A DNA stretch of 64,000 nucleotides, from positions 125,379-189,378 of the forward strand of contig JBDRRS010000003.1 of the NCBI GenBank assembly GCA_043825615.1, written 5' to 3'. The position numbers and the translations under genes were made by a program. The number at the start of each line of letters is the position of its first letter. Position 1 is the first letter of the stretch. A model generated the notes under the pieces. The model searched no databases, was not told the DNA's origin, and saw only the letters and a program-made list of their open reading frames with translations. The DNA is from a bacterium. Its GTDB lineage: Bacteria > CG03. Shown piece by piece: positions 255-64,000 of this stretch.

Positions 255-265
255 CTAAAAGAACA

Positions 266-323
266 GGGACGGTTCTGATACTTTTTAGTATGGAAATAAA
301 AACCAGAACCGTCTCGGTTTTTT
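266..323 (+). repeat. intergenic hairpin element copy A (terminator-like: 10-bp stem GACGGTTCTG/CAGAACCGTC, conserved loop, U-tract)
   Basis: Perfect 10-bp inverted repeat read directly; loop GATACTTTTTAG...GAAA..AAAACC shared with copies D, E, G; followed by TCGGTTTTTT. Confidence 0.6.
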
Positions 324-10347: not shown

Positions 10348-10566
10348 CTGCAGAAAGAAATTACATCCTGACAAAACTATCATTCTCGTGGTCTGAAGAA
10401 CTTCGGGTTTTGTAAAGTACGGGATACGGGTAACGGGGGAAGAACAAATCCCCCTCAATCCCCCTTTACTAAAGGGGGAAAGATTGCCACGGGCTTCGCC
10501 CTCGCAATGGCAGGCCAGGGGGAGGAAAGAACTTTGAGTTAAGAAAGCATTTGGTATAATTGCGCT

Positions 10567-11346
10567 ATGATTGGCGCGATAGCGGGTGATATTATCGGTT
10601 CTGTCTTTGAATGGAATAATATTAAGACGACGGAGTTCCCTTTATTTTGTGACGAATCAATGTTTACGGACGATACAGTATTAACCATAGCGGTTGCCGA
10701 TTGTATATTAAACAGTAAAGATTATGCCGGGACTCTTAAATCATGGGGCAGAAAATATCCGGATGCCGGATACGGGGGAAATTTCGGGGCATGGCTGTAT
10801 AATGAGAGAAGCGAACCGTATAACAGTTGGGGGAACGGGTCGGCTATGAGAGTCAGTCCGGTTGGTTTTGCTTTCGGAACCCTTGAGGAAGTATTGGAAG
10901 AAGCAAAGAAAAGCGCTGAAGTAACCCACAACCATCCTGAAGGAATAAAAGGCGCCCAGGCGGCCGCCGGAGCAATATTTTTAGCGAGGCAGGGTAAAAG
11001 TAAAATTGAAATTAAGGAGTATGTGGAAGAGCAATTTGATTATAACCTGAGCAGAACTCTTGATGAAATCAGACCGTCATATTCCTTTGATGTGAGTTGT
11101 CAGGGCTCTGTGCCCGAAGCTATAACCGCATTTTTAGAGTCAAACAGTTTTGAGGATGCAGTTAGAAAAGCGGTTTCAATAGGAGGGGACAGCGATACGA
11201 TTGCCTGTATAGCGGGCGGAATTGCCCAGGCGTTTTATAAGGAAATTCCTGCGGAAATTATATTGAATGTAAAAAAAAGATTGCCGCCGGATATGCTGGG
11301 GGTTGTTGAAGAATGGAGAAAGAGAATAGTAAATGGTAAATGGTGA
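10567..11346 (+). CDS. ADP-ribosylglycohydrolase family protein (DraG/ARH-like)
   Basis: Family-typical N-terminal GAIAGDIIGS and C-terminal GGDSDTIACIAGGIAQA motifs. Confidence 0.8.
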   Translation: MIGAIAGDIIGSVFEWNNIKTTEFPLFCDESMFTDDTVLTIAVADCILNSKDYAGTLKSWGRKYPDAGYGGNFGAWLYNERSEPYNSWGNGSAMRVSPVGFAFGTLEEVLEEAKKSAEVTHNHPEGIKGAQAAAGAIFLARQGKSKIEIKEYVEEQFDYNLSRTLDEIRPSYSFDVSCQGSVPEAITAFLESNSFEDAVRKAVSIGGDSDTIACIAGGIAQAFYKEIPAEIILNVKKRLPPDMLGVVEEWRKRIVNGKW

Positions 11347-13167: not shown

Positions 13168-13272
13168 TACGATATTGTAATAATTAAAAGCCGGAACGCA
13201 AAAAGTTCAAGGGAAGAGGCGGGTAACGGGGAGCGGGCCGGGGCTTTGCAATAAAAGAAAGGGTAAAAGAAA

Positions 13273-13359
13273 GGGGACGGTTCTAATACTTTTTGGGCGG
13301 GGCAAAATAAGAAACACCGTTGGTTTCGGGGAAATGTCATATTGTAAAGCACCGTCCCC
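13273..13359 (+). repeat. intergenic hairpin element copy G (outside the AT-rich island)
   Basis: GGGGACGGTTCTAATACTTTTTGGG...; distal complement CACCGTCCCC at 13350-13359; upstream of ankyrin gene. Confidence 0.45.
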
Positions 13360-13382
13360 ATTGCTAAAATATAAAAAGCGAA

Positions 13383-19848: not shown

Positions 19849-19890
19849 AATTCTATTATATCAATATATCAATTTCCTGCAAGCACGGGT

Positions 19891-19941
19891 CCAAGCATGG
19901 GGTCATCCAAGCATGGGGTCCATGCATCCAAGCATGGGGTC
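19891..19941 (+). repeat. tandem repeat, three copies of CCAAGCATGGGGTC
   Basis: Read directly: copies at 19891, 19907, 19928. Confidence 0.7.
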
Positions 19942-19956
19942 AGGTCTTGCAATGCA
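19936..19956 (+). repeat. REP-like element GGGGTCAGGTCTTGCAATGCA (forward)
   Basis: Same 18-mer at 35744 and inverted at 20006 and 36612. Confidence 0.7.
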
Positions 19957-20005
19957 ACAGTTATTGAAGGAAATTGAGGAGTTTATGAAGGAAATTAATG
20001 TGTTA

Positions 20006-20023
20006 ATGCAAGACCTGACCCCC
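20006..20023 (-). repeat. REP-like element (inverted copy), with 19936-19956 forms a REP doublet
   Basis: ATGCAAGACCTGACCCCC is the reverse complement of the REP core; ~50 bp from the partner. Confidence 0.7.
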
Positions 20024-20024
20024 A

Positions 20025-22023: not shown

Positions 22024-22130
22024 CCTACGCCCCCTCCTTACCCCGTTAGAGAGCGCCGCTCCCGCGAGCCTCGTCCGCCTCAGGCGGCCGGGCAGGGGCT
22101 CCCGTCGGCGGTATGTTACTCTAATGGGGT

Positions 22131-25663: not shown

Positions 25664-25977
25664 TTCTTCTATAATAAATTACCTCTTTATTGTGTTGAAG
25701 TCAATATTTGGTTGTTGTTACACAATTACGGTTTACCCTGCACCACGGCTTGACAACCGCGGCTTTTGGGGTGATACCCTTCGGGATTTCATATTCATTC
25801 ATCCGCAGGTTTACACTCTCTGCTTTCTGGCTGTGCGGGATAAACCTGTTTGGAAGTGGGAAATAAAGACGGAAGAACAATTAGCGGGTATCTCCTGTTT
25901 TTCGTCAGCCTTTTTTGCTTTATGTTTTGTTTTTTTTTGAAAACTTGCTAAAATGTAAAAGTTCAGTGAACGGCGTG

Positions 25978-26063
25978 TCATTGCGAGGGAATGACTGCCT
26001 GCCGAAGGCAGGCGAGACCGAAGCCCGCCTGAGGCGGGCCACGCCCTTCGGGCTCGCAATGAC
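25978..26063. repeat. 86-bp GC-rich palindromic element, 11-bp terminal inverted repeats GTCATTGCGAG / CTCGCAATGAC
   Basis: Read directly; internal sub-hairpins GCCTGCCgaaGGCAGGC and GCCCGCCtgaGGCGGGC; partial relative at 10491-10510. Confidence 0.55.
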
Positions 26064-56637: not shown

Positions 56638-59026
56638 AAGAAAAAAAATAAGGGCGGTTATCTCTGACGGAATAAAAATACCGGGATCTCTGTTTTCCGC
56701 AATTTCAATTGTGTGGCTCGGAGTGGTTACGTCCCGGTTTATGAAGTATCACCGGATTAATCCGGATATATCATATTTATTCAAATTGGAAGGTCAATTC
56801 AATCTGGCCATTTTTTTACGTTTATTAACCGAATACATATCCGCATTGTTCCTGGTCGTCGGCATTATGGCAGGCGCTTTTTTTATCGGAAGAAAAGTCA
56901 TTCAATTGCTAAAAATTAAAATGAGTTCGCCGCTCGAAGATTTAACTTTTTCGCTCGGCGCCGGCCTCGGGTCTTTGGGTTATATCGTTTTCTTTCTGGG
57001 AATTTTCGGTTTATTGTACAAGTCAATTTTTTATCCTTTGTGGCTTGTGCTTTTCGTACTGGGAATAAAAGAAATTTTACCTCTGGCGAAAACGGGCGCT
57101 TCAAAGAAATTTCAGATTTCATTACTGCACAAAATTATTATTTTTCTTTTGTTTATACCCGTCCTGTTTAATTTTTTTATAAGTTTCACGCCGGAAATGT
57201 TCTACGATTCATTAAATTACCATGTGGGCCTTTCAAATTATTACAGCGTTTATCACAGGATCCTTCCAAGCCCCTACAAGATTGTTTCACATTACCCGCA
57301 CCTGATGTCCATTGTTTATCTTATGGGAATGATGCTGAAAAGCGAAATGACGCCTAAATTAATCAATTTTTCCTGCGGTTTGATAACCATTTTAGGAATA
57401 TTTTACTTTTGCGAAAAGAACTTTAAAAGCCGGATTACAGGCATTATCGGCGTTGCGGTTTACTATTTTACTCCGACGGTCATCAGCAGGTCATGGGCGG
57501 CAACAACGGATATCGGACTGACGTTATTCACCTTCCTTAGTTTAGCCGCTTTAATTAATTCGCTGACTAAAAAAGACGATAATAAGTGGCTGCTCCTGTC
57601 TGCGGTTTTTGCCGGATTTGCCATGGGCACAAAGTATTCGGGAATTTTATTTACTTCCGGTTTGGTTGCCGTGTTATTCTTTTCGAAAGATGATTATTTT
57701 TCTGTAAAAATAAAAAAAATTTTGTTATTCGGCGCAATTTCGCTAATGATATATTCCCCGTGGCTTATTAAAAACTATGTGGAATCCGGCAATCCCGTTC
57801 ACCCGTTCCTCGGCAAATACTGGAAAGTCAAACATTCACATCAATCGCACACCGAACAAATCAAAAATTATTTTTCAGCGCCTGTGCGCAGAAAACAGAA
57901 TTTTCTAAATCTTCTGACGGTGCCGTGGAACCTCAGTATAAAAGGAGGCGGCAGCAACAAATACAGTTCGCCGGATTATTTTATGCTCGGAGCCGTTTTC
58001 CTCGCGTTTATTCCGTTGTTTTTTTTCATTAACGCCAAAAATAAAAAAACGGTTTATAAACTTTTATTGTTTTCGTTTTTTACTTACGTTTTATGGGTTC
58101 TGTGGGCGCCGGATACCAAAATTAAGTATTACACTCCGGCGATACCCGCATTAAGCGTGGCGGCGGCTTACACTATCGTAAAGATTGAAGAAATAAATAA
58201 ATACCTGGGAAAGATGCTTTTAGTGGTTTTTATACTTTTGATAACTATTAACTTTTTATTTATGGTCCCGCTCGCGCACGTTGTTTATAAACCCTTTTCC
58301 ATTCTGACGGGCAGCGTATTAAAAAGCGAATATCTTTCTGCATCCAGGCCGAGTTACCCCTGCCCCTCATACGGCGCCTACAGGTACGTAAACGAAAACC
58401 TTTCCGCGGATGCAAAAATCCTGATGTTCAGGGACTCCAAATGCTATTACATAAAAAGAAAATTCGTTACTTCCGATATCGCCGGGCACAATCCTCTGAT
58501 TGAGTTCTTAAAAAATGCGGGCGACGCGGATGAATTTTACAGTTATCTCAAACAAAAAAACTTCACGCACATCATCGTAAATATACCCGAAACAATCAGA
58601 ACCGCTGTCTATGGGACATTATACTTTGAAAAAAAGGACTTTGCGGTTCTAGACGGATTCTGGAAAAAATACATGAAAAAATTATATGATTTAAACGGCG
58701 TTTATCTGTATGAAATTCTGTCCGAAGAAGAGGCATCAAAGCCGCGCACCCCACCGGAGAACACTGTGGAAAAAACCTATGTAATTTTCAAAATGCAGGC
58801 GGCAGAAGAAAATATGAAAAGCGGGAACTGGAAAGGCGCGCTTGAAGACATAAACGATTTAATTGATAAAAATGTTGCGGACCACCGTACTTATTACTTT
58901 GCAGGGATTTGTTATTACAACCTCGGGGTCTACGTCAATGCGGAAAAAACCATGCAAATTGCGTATAAACTCAGACCCGAGGAAAGATACCGTCAACTTC
59001 TTGAGGATTTGAAAAAGAAATTTTAG
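56627..59026 (+). CDS. large polytopic membrane protein (GT39/GT83-like glycosyltransferase architecture) with C-terminal TPR-like domain (start moved to MENKRKK)
   Basis: Many TM helices over ~550 aa, then soluble C-terminal helical repeats; overlaps Wzx stop by 11 nt. Confidence 0.45.
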   Translation: MENKRKKIRAVISDGIKIPGSLFSAISIVWLGVVTSRFMKYHRINPDISYLFKLEGQFNLAIFLRLLTEYISALFLVVGIMAGAFFIGRKVIQLLKIKMSSPLEDLTFSLGAGLGSLGYIVFFLGIFGLLYKSIFYPLWLVLFVLGIKEILPLAKTGASKKFQISLLHKIIIFLLFIPVLFNFFISFTPEMFYDSLNYHVGLSNYYSVYHRILPSPYKIVSHYPHLMSIVYLMGMMLKSEMTPKLINFSCGLITILGIFYFCEKNFKSRITGIIGVAVYYFTPTVISRSWAATTDIGLTLFTFLSLAALINSLTKKDDNKWLLLSAVFAGFAMGTKYSGILFTSGLVAVLFFSKDDYFSVKIKKILLFGAISLMIYSPWLIKNYVESGNPVHPFLGKYWKVKHSHQSHTEQIKNYFSAPVRRKQNFLNLLTVPWNLSIKGGGSNKYSSPDYFMLGAVFLAFIPLFFFINAKNKKTVYKLLLFSFFTYVLWVLWAPDTKIKYYTPAIPALSVAAAYTIVKIEEINKYLGKMLLVVFILLITINFLFMVPLAHVVYKPFSILTGSVLKSEYLSASRPSYPCPSYGAYRYVNENLSADAKILMFRDSKCYYIKRKFVTSDIAGHNPLIEFLKNAGDADEFYSYLKQKNFTHIIVNIPETIRTAVYGTLYFEKKDFAVLDGFWKKYMKKLYDLNGVYLYEILSEEEASKPRTPPENTVEKTYVIFKMQAAEENMKSGNWKGALEDINDLIDKNVADHRTYYFAGICYYNLGVYVNAEKTMQIAYKLRPEERYRQLLEDLKKKF

Positions 59027-59055
59027 TTCGGTGCAAACGGAAAAGTTCCCGAAGT

Positions 59056-60390
59056 TTATTTCTGCATTGATTTGAGGAAGTCCTTGTTCGTCGCGGTCTT
59101 TTTTATTTTTTCGCGGATAAATTCCATCGCTTCAACATGGTCAACCCTTGAAAGAAGTTTTCTTAAAATCCAGATCTTGTTAAGAACTTCCTCGCTCAAA
59201 AGAAGTTCCTCCTTCCTCGTGCCGCTTTTTGATATATCTATTGTAGGGAAAACTCTTTTGTCGGTTAATTCCCGCGAGAGGTTTACCTCCATGTTTCCCG
59301 TGCCCTTGAATTCTTCGAATATGACTTCGTCCATCCGGGAGCCGGTGTCCACAAGAGCCGTAGCGATGATGGTTAAACTCCCCTGCTCCTTGGTCGCTCT
59401 TGCCGCTCCGAAAAATTTTTTCGGTTTCTGAAGAGCGCTGGACTCCAGCCCCCCCGACATAACTCTTCCTGACGACGGTGTCTGGGCGTTGTGGGCCCTC
59501 GCCAGCCGCGTGAGGGAATCAAGGAGTATCACGACATCCTCCCCCATTTCAACAAGCCGTTTCGCTTTTTCAAGCACCATATCCGCCACCTGCGTGTGTC
59601 TTTGCGGCGTTTCGTCAAAGGTTGAGGCGACCACTTCCGTGGCTACGCTGTTCCGCATATCGGTAACTTCCTCAGGCCTCTCGTCAATAAGCAGGCATAT
59701 AAGAACAACTTCGGGATGATTTTCCGTTACGGCGTTGGCAATTGCCTGAAGAAGCATGGTTTTTCCCGTTCTTGGGGCGGCCACAATCAGACCCCTCTGG
59801 CCTTTTCCTATAGGGGTAAGCAAATCCATCACCCGCGTCGAAATCTGGTCTCTCGTCGTCTCAAGGTTTATCTTTTCATGCGGATACAAAGGGGTTAATT
59901 TGTCGAAGTGCGGCCTTTTTATTGATTCTTCAGCCGTCTGGGAATTTACGGATGTAATGTCGTTCATTGCGTAGTATTTTTCGTTGTTGACGGACGGATG
60001 TTTGCAGAAGCCCTTCAGAAAGTCCCCTGTTCTGAGGCGCAGGCGCTTTATCAGCATGGGCGCCACATAAATATCGTTGTTTGAAGGGAGATAACTGTTT
60101 TCGCTGGCCCTCAGAAAACCGAATCCGTCGGGAAGTATCTCGAGAAAACCTTCTTTTTCTTCTTTCGGAGGGACGGCATTTTCCGCCGGCGTTTCGTTTT
60201 CCCTGTATTCTTTCTTAGGCAGGGATTCAACAACCGCCGCGGGCGCAGGCGTAACCCGCGATTTCATTATTTCCTCTATTAGAGCATCTCTTTTCAGTTT
60301 TGGGATGTTTTTAACATTCATTGACGATGCAATGTGCCTCAGTTCCCACCATTTCATTTTTTCCAGTTCTTCCATGTTAATTTCCGGCAT
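59056..60390 (-). CDS. rho: transcription termination factor Rho
   Basis: [15 protein letters not shown] Walker A and overall Rho-typical sequence; AGGAGG RBS 8 nt upstream. Confidence 0.9.
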
Positions 60391-60406
60391 TTTGCCTCCT
60401 GTTATA

Positions 60407-60714
60407 CTTACTCACTCGCATATAATTCTCGATTGTTCAGCTCAAGAAGGGGAAGTTTCCCCTTATTGTGCTCCGAATCGTCCTCAGGCGGACAATTCTC
60501 CGCGGTCATCCCCTCCAAAGGTAAAGGATGGTTGCTTTCACGAGCATACTTATAGACTTACTCACTCGCATATAATTCTCGATTGTTCAGCTCAATAGGG
60601 GGGATTTGCCCCCCTGCTACGCATTGTGCCCCGGGCAACCGCTTCCCAGCGCACTCGTCGCTTGTCCCCCCCCCCATAAGGTAAAGGACGGTTGTTTTCA
60701 CGATCATACTTTTA
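60407..60714. repeat. tandem duplication (2 units, ~150 and ~158 bp) immediately upstream of rho
   Basis: Unit starts CTTACTCACTCGCATATAATTCTCGATTGTTCAGCTCAA at 60407 and 60557; unit ends AAGGTAAAGGA[T/C]GGTTG[C/T]TTTCACGA[G/T]CATACTT; internal hairpins covary (AGGGGAAgTTCCCCT vs GGGGGGatttgCCCCCC). Confidence 0.8.
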
Positions 60715-60926
60715 CAATTGCCAGCCGCTGCCCCTAAGAATTGTTACAAAGGCAGCCGGTGGTTTGATAAAACTTCTGTTTAATTCCTGGTTTTTATCTC
60801 AATGTTTCAAAATCCCAAACTTTCCCGATTTAGTTTTTCTTAAATTTTCTATCCCTGTATGGATATTTTACAAATACGGCTTTTTCGTGTCAACCCCCAA
60901 TTTCCAATATTTTCCAGGTGGGGTTT

Positions 60927-61406
60927 TTAAGTTTTTTTGCCGCGGGCAAGGGCAATAATTCCCGTCCGCACCATTTCTTTTATGCCATAGGGCGAAAGAA
61001 GTTTCAGGAACGCCTCGATTTTATTTTCCCTTCCCGTTAATTCAAGAACACAGGTGTCCGTCGAAACATCAACGATATTGGCGCGGAAAACATTGGCAAT
61101 CTCAATAATTTCCCTGCGCACATTTTTTGAGGTGCTCACCTTTACAAGCATCAGGTCTCTTTCTATAAACTCCTCGTTTTTGAAGTCAATTACTTTTATT
61201 ACGTCAGGGAGTTTGTTCAGTTGTTTTACAACCTGTTCTAATATTTTGTCATCGCCTTTTACAACAATTGTCATTCTGGAAATGTCGGCGACCTCAGTTT
61301 CCCCTACCGTCAGCGAACTTATGTTAAAAGCCCGCGCGGAAAAAAGCCCCGAGATTTTCGCAAGGACCCCCGGCTTGTTTTCAACAAGAGCCGCAATCGT
61401 ATGCTT
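60927..61406 (-). CDS. ilvN: acetolactate synthase small (regulatory) subunit, ACT domain (start moved to MKHTIAAL)
   Basis: HTIAALVENKPGVLAKISGLFSARAFNISSLTV ACT-domain signature. Confidence 0.75.
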   Translation of the reverse strand, partial: KHTIAALVENKPGVLAKISGLFSARAFNISSLTVGETEVADISRMTIVVKGDDKILEQVVKQLNKLPDVIKVIDFKNEEFIERDLMLVKVSTSKNVRREIIEIANVFRANIVDVSTDTCVLELTGRENKIEAFLKLLSPYGIKEMVRTGIIALARGKKT

Positions 61407-61459
61407 CATTTTTTCCTCCTTTATCATTTTTTTTGACACTATATCTTTTGTGTTTTTTC

Positions 61460-64000
61460 TTATTTAATAACCGCCAGTTTTTTGACTTCCGTTATATCCC
61501 CTTCTCCTTCCTTCAATGCTTTTACGGAATACAAATAAACTCCGCTGGCAATATCCGAGATGTTCCATGCGTGCTCATAAGCATATTTGCCCCTGACAAT
61601 TGTAAACTCATTTCCGGAAAGTTCCTTCGTATAAACGAGTTCACCAGCGATATTATATATTTTTATTTGAACTTTGTCAGCAATCCCGCACTCAACATGA
61701 ATCGTCGGTTTCTTTCCTCTCTTCGCAGGATTCGGATACGAGTAAATCTCTCCCTTTCTGAATGTCATATCTGGCCCGGCTCTGCTTACTTTCACCGAAG
61801 AAACAACTTCCCTCACAAACGAGCCGTCGCTCACCCCTTCATTCCCCGCTAAATCCTTTCCCGTCACGTAGATTTTATCAATGTCTCCGAAGCCGGTTCT
61901 TTTTGTGTAAATTCCTTTATAAGTCGTGGTCGTTCCTGTTACCGGTTCCATTTCTATTTCAACACTCTGTTTCTTATCTTTTTTGCTGTTGCCGTTTGGC
62001 AGAACCTCGGCAATAATATCCGGCGCTGCCTGAAGTTCTTCCGAGGCGGTAACGGTTATTATCATCTCATCCGACGTTTCAGGGTCAACTGTTAAAACCA
62101 CCCCAAACTCCGGAGGTGTCGTATCAAACATTGTGCTTACAGGTGAAAGAACCGCATACAGTGACGCGACAGAACCCACCCGAACAATCACTCTGTGATT
62201 TATCCTGTCAACCGTTCCGCCTAAAGCAACCCATTCTCCCAACTCTTCATTCCAGTCGTAAATATCAAGTTCTTCCTCGCTCCCCCCTTCAGGGAGCAAA
62301 GCGGGCTCATAAAACATAATCAGAAACGCAGCCGGGGTGAATATAACGCCGTCCGGAGAGATGTCATAAAGTTCCCCCATGATTTCCAGGCCGGATAACT
62401 GAAGTGATTTTGAGGCATTATCGGGAACTGACGTTGTTGAAATTGAAACCGCACCTGCAATATTCGGATACCATATATCTACAAACCCGTCGCTGCTCAT
62501 TGTCTCATTCGGTGATTCGCTTGCAACCACAATATAACTGCTCTCAACAGGCGATGTCTTCTGGGCGGTCTTCGCCTGAATGTTAAGCAAATATATCCCG
62601 TCTGAAACTATATCGCCGTTGTAATCTCTTCCGCCCCAGTCGGCGCTCTGCGGGTTCTGACCGCTTTGTCTTAACTCATCATCAATGAGAATCCGAAAGA
62701 TATCCGGATTGTCCTTATCCTCTATTCTGATGGTAACATTTGAGTTCTTTGAAATTGAATAATGAATCGTTATTGTGTCCCTCACCCCGTCAAAGTTCGG
62801 TGAAAAAGGGTCTGGTTCCGTTGAGATATTATAAACATAAAGAGCGGTATTTGAGATTGTTACTTTATTCATTGAACTTTCACAGGAGTAACCCAGAACA
62901 TCAAACGCCGTTACCTGATAATAATAGTCGCCCGGAGAAACCAGACCTCTGTTATCGTCTTTACCGTCCCAGACAACATTCTGGAGAACATCAAGTGCCT
63001 GCGTCGTGTCGCTTAAGAGGCATCTTGTTATGCTTGTCCCTTCCTGGTCGGAATACACTTTTACGCTTACTTTCACCGGTTCCGTTGTTTTCGTGTCCGA
63101 AAACATATAAGAGAGCGTCGTTATATCATCTGTCCCGTCCCCGTCGGGACTGAATGTTGCAGGGTTAACGGGCTCAACCGAAATTGTCAGCACATCAACC
63201 TGCATGGTAATTATGTACTGCTGGGAAGGTCCGACCTCCGTCGTGTATCCGAACTGGTCGGTGCCTGTTAGCTGATAATAATACTTACCGTTTGAAACGA
63301 ATTTACCGTCTTCCCTTTTCCCGTCCCATGTGTGAGAATAAATACCGGGAACCGCTTCCTCACTGTTTGAAATTAGATCTCTTACGAGGTTTTCTCCGCC
63401 CGAATCGGAATAAATCTTTATTGAAACATAAGATGAGGTCGCTCCTTTCAAGTCGGAAAGCGAATACGTTATTGTTGATACTTCATCCACAAAATCCCCG
63501 TCCGGAGAAAAGGGGTCGGGACTATCCGCAATATCCGAAAAAACGAGAATGTCCTTGCTCTTTACTATAACCAGTCCAGGAGCGCTCTCAACGGGATTTC
63601 CGTATGTCTCGGCGATTATCTTTATGTTATACGAGGCGTTCGGAACATAAAAGCCGCTGTCTCTCTTCCCGTCCCATGTGTCCGTGCTTATCCCGACAGC
63701 CCTTGTTTCATCCGTTATTAGATTCCTTACAATCTCTCCTGTTACCTTGTCCGAAATAATTACACTTACCCCCGCTTCTTCAGAAAGCGAATAGACAATG
63801 TCTATTGTGTCGGCAAGTCCGTCGTCGTCAGGCGAAAATACGTTATTCGCTACACCGTCAACATAAAAGACAGGAACTGTAATTACAACCAGAACATTTG
63901 AGATTGTAACCTCCGCGCTTTCATCAGTTGTTATGCTTCCACCAACATTTGTTTTTATCTGATATGTGTAAATTCCGTTTGGAAGCCAGTTCCCGGAATC
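61460..64000 (-). CDS. large surface protein with repeated FlgD-Ig-like domains and T9SS C-terminal sorting domain (5' end beyond window)
   Basis: C-terminal ASGVYLYSVKA...TEVKKLAVIK; repeated FSPDGDG...WDGK..G..V..G.YYYQ units; hand translation shows the frame stays open from 63490 to 64000. Confidence 0.7.
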   Translation of the reverse strand, partial: DSGNWLPNGIYTYQIKTNVGGSITTDESAEVTISNVLVVITVPVFYVDGVANNVFSPDDDGLADTIDIVYSLSEEAGVSVIISDKVTGEIVRNLITDETRAVGISTDTWDGKRDSGFYVPNASYNIKIIAETYGNPVESAPGLVIVKSKDILVFSDIADSPDPFSPDGDFVDEVSTITYSLSDLKGATSSYVSIKIYSDSGGENLVRDLISNSEEAVPGIYSHTWDGKREDGKFVSNGKYYYQLTGTDQFGYTTEVGPSQQYIITMQVDVLTISVEPVNPATFSPDGDGTDDITTLSYMFSDTKTTEPVKVSVKVYSDQEGTSITRCLLSDTTQALDVLQNVVWDGKDDNRGLVSPGDYYYQVTAFDVLGYSCESSMNKVTISNTALYVYNISTEPDPFSPNFDGVRDTITIHYSISKNSNVTIRIEDKDNPDIFRILIDDELRQSGQNPQSADWGGRDYNGDIVSDGIYLLNIQAKTAQKTSPVESSYIVVASESPNETMSSDGFVDIWYPNIAGAVSISTTSVPDNASKSLQLSGLEIMGELYDISPDGVIFTPAAFLIMFYEPALLPEGGSEEELDIYDWNEELGEWVALGGTVDRINHRVIVRVGSVASLYAVLSPVSTMFDTTPPEFGVVLTVDPETSDEMIITVTASEELQAAPDIIAEVLPNGNSKKDKKQSVEIEMEPVTGTTTTYKGIYTKRTGFGDIDKIYVTGKDLAGNEGVSDGSFVREVVSSVKVSRAGPDMTFRKGEIYSYPNPAKRGKKPTIHVECGIADKVQIKIYNIAGELVYTKELSGNEFTIVRGKYAYEHAWNISDIASGVYLYSVKALKEGEGDITEVKKLAVIK

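Follow-up and report, generated by a model that had tools for sequence, protein, structure and literature searches.

A tandem hairpin-rich unit directly upstream of rho as a possible cis-acting leader RNA module

The rho locus and its two repeat units

The window considered here, a stretch of DNA from an uncultured bacterium analyzed over its full 64 kb, carries rho on its minus strand (59056..60390). The gene encodes a protein of 444 amino acids with Rho_N, Rho_RNA_bind, and ATPase domains. Upstream of it, and on the same strand, is an ilvH/ilvN-like gene (60927..61409; 160 amino acids) for the small subunit of acetolactate synthase, with a CCCCA/TGGGG hairpin at its 3' side that adjoins the rho promoter. 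The gene directly upstream of ilvH (61460-63490, minus strand) encodes a 676-amino-acid protein with FlgD-Ig and type IX secretion C-terminal sorting domains; the related locus L081, with the gene order ilvB-ilvH-rho, has ilvB in this place. The spacer between rho and the ilvH-like gene is 536 nucleotides long and contains the repeat described below.

From where is rho transcribed? A scan for hexamers 16 to 18 nucleotides apart, with a -10 carrying A at position 2 and T at position 6, reported TTGACA-17 nt-TAAAAT on the minus strand at 60893-60865 (11 of 12 matches). This is the probable rho promoter. Transcription would start near 60858, and the promoter lies about 500 nucleotides upstream of the start codon. 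A TTGACA..N16-17..TAnnAT arrangement also precedes rho in the related loci L081, L084, L085, L088, and L091, at 145 to 320 nucleotides from the start codons. The first part of the leader (60712..60858, minus strand) is A-rich and C-poor and ends in a strong hairpin at 60721-60762 that has no U tract. The repeat units begin about 150 nucleotides downstream of the promoter. After them come a TATAAC linker, the Shine-Dalgarno sequence AGGAGG (60395-60400), a CAAA spacer, and the rho ATG (60388-60390), which together occupy 60388..60406 on the minus strand. A scan of 59000-61600 found no terminator-like site on the rho strand between promoter and rho. Because a conserved promoter lies upstream and nothing terminator-like intervenes, both units are most likely part of a rho 5' untranslated region (UTR) of about 470 nucleotides. 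The initial annotation had proposed a duplicated structured leader or promoter. The leader half of that proposal fits: the units are oriented with rho, have a conserved rho promoter on one side and the ribosome-binding site of rho on the other, and have a homologue in the same position in a relative, L083. The promoter half is not supported: the TTGAGC...TATATG pair within the units has a spacer of 15 nucleotides, lacks T at the last -10 position, and fails the scan that reported the upstream promoter.

The tandem duplication itself is real, as both of the blocks that frame the units occur twice in the window where shuffled sequences are expected to hold none. Each unit is about 150 nucleotides long and, read on the rho strand, has three hairpins (P1, P2, and P3) between a 5' A block and a 3' B block. 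The B block (UUGAGCUGAACAAUCGAGAAUUAUAUGCGAGUGAGUAAG) is a 39-mer present exactly two times in the 64 kb, at 60407-60445 and 60557-60595. It is identical in the two units as first reported, and direct reading of the sequence extends the exact repeat to 40 nucleotides (60406-60445 and 60556-60595). The A block, with the rho-strand consensus AAGUAUGMUCGUGAAARCAACCRUCCUUUACCUU, is the near-identical terminal block of the earlier description; it is a 34-mer found at 60518-60551 and 60678-60711 that agrees at 31 of 34 positions, with three differences. Start to start, the B blocks are 150 nucleotides apart and the A blocks 160. Tandem Repeats Finder reported no array here because the middles of the units are too diverged.

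All parts of both units lie on the minus strand. Unit 1 (60557..60711), delimited by the repeat blocks, folding, and alignment to L083, consists of an A block (60678-60711), hairpin P1 (about 60664-60689), hairpin P2 (60626-60654), hairpin P3 with a core at 60598-60614 that is extended by CAAU/AUUG pairing to 60593-60626, and a B block (60557-60595). P1 includes a run of 10 G residues at 60666-60675. A linker of 5 nucleotides (60552..60556; TCTAT on the rho strand) leads into unit 2 (60407..60551), which was delimited by the repeat blocks, folding, and a match to a dispersed hairpin. Its A block (60518-60551) is followed by P1 (60507-60530), P2 (60475-60498), P3 (60443-60468), and the B block (60407-60445). 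In general, P1 pairs a pyrimidine tract with a G-run, and P3 is a G-run/C-run stem lengthened by CAAU/AUUG. Both units have the G-run/C-run hairpin that had been noticed at the outset, unit 1 at 60598-60614 and unit 2 at 60443-60468. In unit 2, P2 is a stem of 9 perfect base pairs and contains CCGCCTGAGG of a dispersed hairpin family. The repeat had been said to end 17 nucleotides before the rho ribosome-binding site; the distance is in fact 6 nucleotides to the Shine-Dalgarno sequence and 16 to the ATG.

AAGTAT/TAAGTAT direct repeats flank the units, and the relative L082 has AAGTAT beside its own rho ribosome-binding site; a target-site duplication could leave such repeats, and slippage at microhomology predicts the same pattern. 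The ends of the unit, AAGTATG... and ...GAGTAAGT, are not inverted with respect to each other, and a repeat search of the region found no terminal inverted repeats, so the unit is not a MITE by that mark. The homopolymer at 60666-60675 is 10 nucleotides long (G on the rho strand and C on the plus strand); its counterpart in L083 has 6 nucleotides, and in unit 2 the run is broken. Such a tract could be prone to slippage or could have introduced a length error during assembly.

Is the duplication an artefact, a repeat collapsed or falsely expanded during assembly? The source is a metagenome-assembled genome (MAG) contig, and the region holds both the 10-nucleotide homopolymer and the 40-nucleotide exact repeat. 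However, the middles of the units differ strongly from each other, which is not the product of simple assembler stutter. Logan contigs are k=31 assemblies, and an independent one from the same strain (L089, SRR26275509), encoding a 100% identical Rho, begins with the last 30 nucleotides of the 40-mer plus the first base unique to the unit 2 side. It therefore breaks exactly at the exit of the 40-mer, as a k=31 graph is expected to break at a true repeat, and this argues that an artefact is barely credible.

When the rho strand was folded and compared with shuffled sequences, the z-score was -3.74 for unit 2, -3.41 for the L083 unit, and -0.86 for unit 1. The weak value for unit 1 is explained by its G-runs and C-runs, which let any shuffle fold well. 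On the plus strand, the corresponding scores are -2.74 (unit 2) and -0.49. The RNAalifold consensus has three main hairpins and a minor stem in the B block, and pairs 90% of its cells versus 40 to 60% when the partners are slid. The three copies align in different registers over P3 and the B block, and the pairing of P2 differs between unit 1 and L083. A U-G pair in P2 of unit 2, read on the rho strand, becomes a C-A mismatch on the other. Do the hairpins covary, as had been claimed? They are kept despite sequence change, but the compensatory changes, which affect three pairs and all fall in P2, are equaled by 14 of 500 shuffles. With the consensus derived from the same three sequences that were used to test it, this covariation is weak and only suggestive. 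The P3 C-run could pair with either the 5' G-run or the 5' arm of P3. The lengths of G-run and P3 arm vary together (10/6 in unit 1, 6/6 in L083, and 4/4 in unit 2), a covariation seen across three copies only.

Relatives, constraint, and the history of unit 2

Beyond the same strain, the closest relatives by Rho are annotated as Elusimicrobia or Elusimicrobiota; one of the Rho relatives, P0125, is a C-terminal fragment. Comparison of upstream regions found a homologous unit at the same position in L083 (Rho 85%), where a single unit adjoins the same TATAAC-AGGAGG-CAAA-ATG and the contig ends inside the A block. L081 (Rho 91%) shares the ilvB-ilvH-rho synteny and has a 212-nucleotide spacer with no unit, and L082 (Rho 93%) has none in the 110 nucleotides of upstream sequence on its contig. 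Conservation upstream of rho is thus present in L083, at a level above that of synonymous sites, but not in L081 and L082. The absence of the unit from these two, whose Rho proteins are closer than that of L083, means that it is dispensable. GTDB genomes scanned through Rho gave relatives of at most 57% identity, and the motif was in none of them. An nhmmer search found no further whole-unit copy in the 64-kb window or in approximately 490 kb of related loci (92 loci). A scan of the JGI metagenome collection for GAATTATANGCGAGTGAGTAAG gave 0 matches; the collection evidently holds no close relatives, as the N terminus of Rho recovered only two distant loci from it. Nor was the unit found in viral, plasmid, or phage collections, and a joined query of the three open reading frames (ORFs) that cross the units (two on the plus strand and one on the rho strand) had no match among 5.8 billion proteins. 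The known copies therefore number three, from two lineages.

How well is the unit conserved between these lineages? Of 132 aligned nucleotides, unit 1 shares 111 (84%) with the L083 unit, versus 59% identity at the 176 fourfold degenerate sites of the adjacent rho genes, a difference that corresponds to a binomial z of about 5 to 6 calculated from the counts. Such an excess over fourfold sites suggests that the unit is under selection. Synonymous identity is not raised over rho codons 1 to 45. From GCGAGTGAG to the ATG, unit 2 and L083 differ by zero substitutions, a stretch that spans the 3' half of the B block, the linker, the Shine-Dalgarno sequence, and the start codon. Unit 1 and L083 are separated by indels of 1, 2, 2, and 6 nucleotides; as these are not all multiples of three, the conservation does not come from coding. 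By its leader and initial 12 rho codons, the window falls with L083; by the remainder of the gene, it falls with L081 and L082. This grouping hints at recombination and weakens the argument for selection. Recombination may have touched the leader and the start of rho, with a breakpoint near codon 12 and an uncertain age. The first 12 or so codons of rho match the L083 lineage, and in L081 and L082 the protein begins with MEGLNL and MDGLNL, respectively.

The middles of the two units do differ, as the initial annotation stated, but gradual divergence is not the best account of unit 2. Over a 33-nucleotide stretch of the middle, unit 1 matches L083 at 28 positions and unit 2 at 14. The unit 2 segment CCGCGGAGAATTGTCCGCCTGAGGACGAT aligns to two other hairpins, one at 22061-22084 in the window and one in the rho leader of L091/L086; in both comparisons, a score as high arises in only 1 of 300 shuffles. 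In the window, CCGCCTGAGG has three occurrences where 0.09 are expected, always in GC-rich intergenic hairpin clusters. Unit 2 is thus a mosaic, and its center was probably replaced by a member of the dispersed CCGCCTSAGGCGG hairpin family rather than slowly mutated. Units 1 and 2 have the same B block, 6 to 7 positions of which differ from L083. The simplest history is the following. A single unit, such as L083 has at this position, was probably ancestral and was then probably duplicated by unequal recombination or slippage at the flanking short direct repeat AAGTAT; after this fairly recent duplication, the central hairpin of the rho-proximal copy would have been swapped for a member of the CCGCCTSAGGCGG family. 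An older duplication followed by gene conversion of the flanks may serve as the alternative.

The genome and its relatives are rich in other intergenic hairpins. GC-rich (70 to 83%) multihairpin islands stand out from the 42% GC genome at 22024-22130 and 25977-26063, as well as in L091 at 2277-2470 (the same as L086 1-125), and all have the CCGCCTSAGGCGG hairpin in common. The islands are closed by inverted repeats (CCCCATTAGAG/CTCTAACGGGG and GTCATTGCGAG/CTCGCAATGAC; in L091, a perfect 18-bp ATGGGGACGGTTCCTATT pair), and two of them, at 22024-22130 and in L091, stop immediately short of a Shine-Dalgarno sequence, which in L091 is that of rho. The element in the L091/L086 rho leader is 194 nucleotides long with 18-bp terminal inverted repeats. 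A palindromic motif, GGGGACGGTTC or GAACCGTCCCC(ATT), recurs in the intergenic DNA of this clade, often just 5' of ribosome-binding sites. Sites of this motif are found in the window (258-323 and 13270-13362), L081 (1776-1787), L082 (39-50), L086 (112-123), and L091 (2279-2290 and 2457-2468), and the motif precedes the rho ribosome-binding site in L082, L086, and L091. GGGACGGTTC is present twice in the window versus 0.1 expected. The intergenic stretch 19849-20024 contains four direct copies of AAGCATGGGGTC, two inverted copies of GACCCCACTAT, and a 30-nucleotide inverted repeat (GGGGTCAGGTCTTGC.../...GCAAGACCTGACCCC), and a 15-mer from it also lies in the L088 rho leader (1375-1389), just before the ribosome-binding site. 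Finally, three small hairpins of the G-run/C-run and CTCGCAATG types at 10420-10566 are followed by TTGAGT-15 nt-TGGTATAAT. The extended -10 in TGGTATAAT ends 6 nucleotides before the ATG at 10567, which suggests that this gene may have a leaderless or near-leaderless mRNA.

Possible functions and rival readings

What might the units do? Several familiar devices were considered and set aside. The long untranslated leader of an Escherichia coli-type rho attenuator is there, at about 470 nucleotides between the promoter (60893-60865) and the ATG (60390). The Rho-loading (rut) site of such an attenuator is not: the ratio of C to G is 0.40 to 0.94 in all 78-nucleotide windows of the leader on the rho strand, no C-rich, G-poor tract of roughly 70 to 80 nucleotides is found, and the units are strongly structured. 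Intrinsic termination fits poorly as well, as P3 has no U tract, being followed by UAUUGAG or UUCUUGAG, and the scan of 59000-61600 gave no terminator-like rho-strand site. In silico deletion of one or both units leaves the predicted accessibility of the Shine-Dalgarno sequence unchanged, so they do not mask it. As a protein-coding gene, the unit is discounted by the indels that break its frame, by the lack of a Pfam match for the 49-amino-acid ORF, and by the lack of any database protein. The idea that the A or B blocks are decayed copies of the rho start was rejected: the alignment is not significant for the window, whose scores are reached by 427 of 500 and 500 of 500 shuffles, and only marginal (11 of 500) for L083, where CCGGGAATTA is common to the B block and rho codons 2 to 4. 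BoxA/Nus antitermination, sigma-54 and ECF-type promoters, and CsrA binding (GGA) all proved a poor fit to the invariant positions, judged from sequence only. The riboswitch that the initial annotation had entertained found no counterpart among known families: at gathering thresholds, Rfam 15 (4,227 models) had no match in the whole window, and a permissive search of 60300-61000 returned only chance-level matches (E values of 1.9 to 8.5, far below threshold).

The reading we prefer, tentatively and at somewhat less than even confidence, is that the unit is a selected, cis-acting RNA module in the rho leader, lineage-restricted and duplicated in this genome. The two units would most likely be tandem noncoding leader modules, transcribed together with rho from the TTGACA-17-TAAAAT promoter. 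Each module has a conserved, largely unpaired 5' arm (the A block), three local hairpins, and a conserved 3' arm (the B block), which in the proximal copy leads straight into the Shine-Dalgarno sequence. We infer that the module influences rho expression in cis, as an RNA. The likeliest device would be a switch in which the 5' G-run competes with the 5' arm of P3 for the P3 C-run, altering pausing, read-through, or the fate of the transcript just before the ribosome-binding site, and two copies might give a stronger or steeper response. Given that there is no U tract, no C-rich tract, and no change in Shine-Dalgarno accessibility, no classical terminator, Rho-based, or translational read-out can be named.

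The strongest competing reading is that of a structured repeat, either selfish or neutral: a hairpin composite resembling REP/BIME elements or MITEs that was amplified in a permissive rho leader and has no role specific to rho, with at most generic effects on mRNA stability. We consider this unlikely, yet serious enough to be weighed with care. The genome and its relatives carry GC-rich multihairpin islands, some of them directly before ribosome-binding sites; the rho leader of L091/L086 has, at the corresponding position, a different hairpin element bounded by inverted repeats; P2 of unit 2 is one member of a dispersed family; and the unit is found in L083 and missing from the closer L081 and L082. 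The units also fold independently, with no contact with the Shine-Dalgarno sequence, and the flanking AAGTAT direct repeats resemble a target duplication. Against these points, no other copy of the whole unit turned up in the 64 kb, the approximately 490 kb of related loci, or the JGI metagenome, viral, plasmid, and phage collections; no called ORF was matched among the 5.8 billion proteins; and the unit has no terminal inverted repeats. Its presence at the same site in two lineages, at 84% identity versus 59% at neutral sites, fits vertical inheritance under constraint. Many dispersed whole-unit copies, as in a REP/BIME family, were sought and not found in the window or the 92 loci; only P2 of unit 2 is dispersed.

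Other readings give the units a more conventional job. In third place, and quite unlikely, is a module made of a hairpin and a weak promoter, in which P3 stops upstream transcription and the TTGAGC-N15-TATATG pair of the B block serves as a weak proximal promoter. The second B block would then drive rho with a leader of about 20 nucleotides, and the first would drive unit 2 as a small RNA or provide an extra rho start. The order of hairpin and then TTGA mirrors the junction after ilvH, where a hairpin adjoins TTGACA; TTGAG and TATA are present in all three copies, with several of the differences falling within the would-be spacer; unit 2 and L083 hardly differ over the stretch that starts at GAATTATA and ends at the ATG, as might be expected of a -10 with a short leader; and another gene in the window has TTGAGT-15-TGGTATAAT. 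However, the spacer is 15 nucleotides, the -10 candidates TATATG and TATAAG lack the final T, and the site fails the consensus scan. The strongest conservation lies downstream of the putative -10 rather than in the hexamers, no U tract follows P3 when read on the rho strand, and a far better promoter, conserved in relatives, is already in place upstream. Far less probable is that the opposite (plus) strand is the functional one, yielding an antisense RNA or a DNA-level element that uses a TATAAT in the B block and a terminator-like site made of a hairpin and TTATTGT. Read on the plus strand, the B block shows this TATAAT unchanged in all three copies, the terminator-like site lies at 60449-60461, and the plus strand is C-rich, but no acceptable -35 is found at 16 to 18 nucleotides, folding is weaker (z-scores of -2.74 and -0.49), and the G-U pairs favor the rho strand. 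The least likely of these is a leader-peptide attenuator, in which translation of the Ile/Leu/Val/Thr-rich peptides MIVKTTVLYL... and MLVKATILYLWRG would select the hairpins that form, an idea with very little chance of being right. The short peptide ORFs described earlier both exist, one of 49 amino acids (60558-60707) and one of 13 from the ATG at 60547. They start in the conserved A block, where the three differences are conservative first-position changes, the peptide coding reaches the G-run, and an ilv gene lies upstream. But neither ATG has a Shine-Dalgarno sequence, though genes here use a strong AGGAGG; the lengths are unequal, at 49 versus 13 amino acids; in L083, the conserved TTTACCTT is read in a shifted frame because of a 1-nucleotide indel; P3 does not qualify as an intrinsic terminator; and the longer ORF has no Pfam or protein-database match.

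Comparison with known leader elements and significance

We place the unit among structured 5' leader elements, and three groups of known systems are instructive for comparison. In E. coli and Salmonella, the rho 5' UTR is a site of Rho-dependent attenuation that is modulated by the small RNA SraL (PMC12360218). The locus described here is like that leader in having a long untranslated leader and a dedicated promoter and in being a plausible place for control of Rho synthesis. It differs in being G-rich and structured, without the defining C-rich, unstructured loading site, and there is no sequence similarity. Tandem riboswitches, such as those for glycine, are homologous structured modules placed in series within one 5' UTR. 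The arrangement of two homologous modules directly before a gene is shared, whereas an Rfam match, a terminator, and a platform that masks the Shine-Dalgarno sequence are all lacking here; furthermore, only three copies are known, and the second of the two in this genome has a foreign central hairpin. REP/BIME elements are extragenic palindromic repeats that are dispersed in the genome, typically at the 3' ends of genes. The likeness lies in GC-rich hairpin modules with conserved linkers in intergenic DNA, in P2 of unit 2 being part of a dispersed palindromic family, and in the comparable hairpin clusters elsewhere in the window and in the rho leaders of relatives. Unlike REP/BIME elements, the whole unit is confined to a single locus in the 64 kb and the related loci searched, it is located in a 5' leader rather than at a gene 3' end, and its conservation at one orthologous site exceeds what the neutral rate would give.

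Rho acts as a global regulator. To our knowledge, the control of its level is understood in only a few model bacteria, and the known route is attenuation at a C-rich leader. If the unit is merely a repeat in a tolerant leader, its lesson would be the ordinary one that REP-like hairpins remodel 5' UTRs. One bold speculation, which we hold to be quite unlikely, is that it represents a class of cis-regulatory RNA not described before, which would set Rho synthesis in an uncultured Elusimicrobia-related clade through a G-run/C-run switch sensing a ligand, a protein, or temperature, rather than through a C-rich loading site for Rho itself, with the tandem copies giving a steeper or two-input response. 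More generally, if the unit is regulatory, this G-rich, hairpin-rich module would be a different way to control the synthesis of Rho, and the locus would offer a natural case of a leader element evolving through duplication and hairpin swapping.
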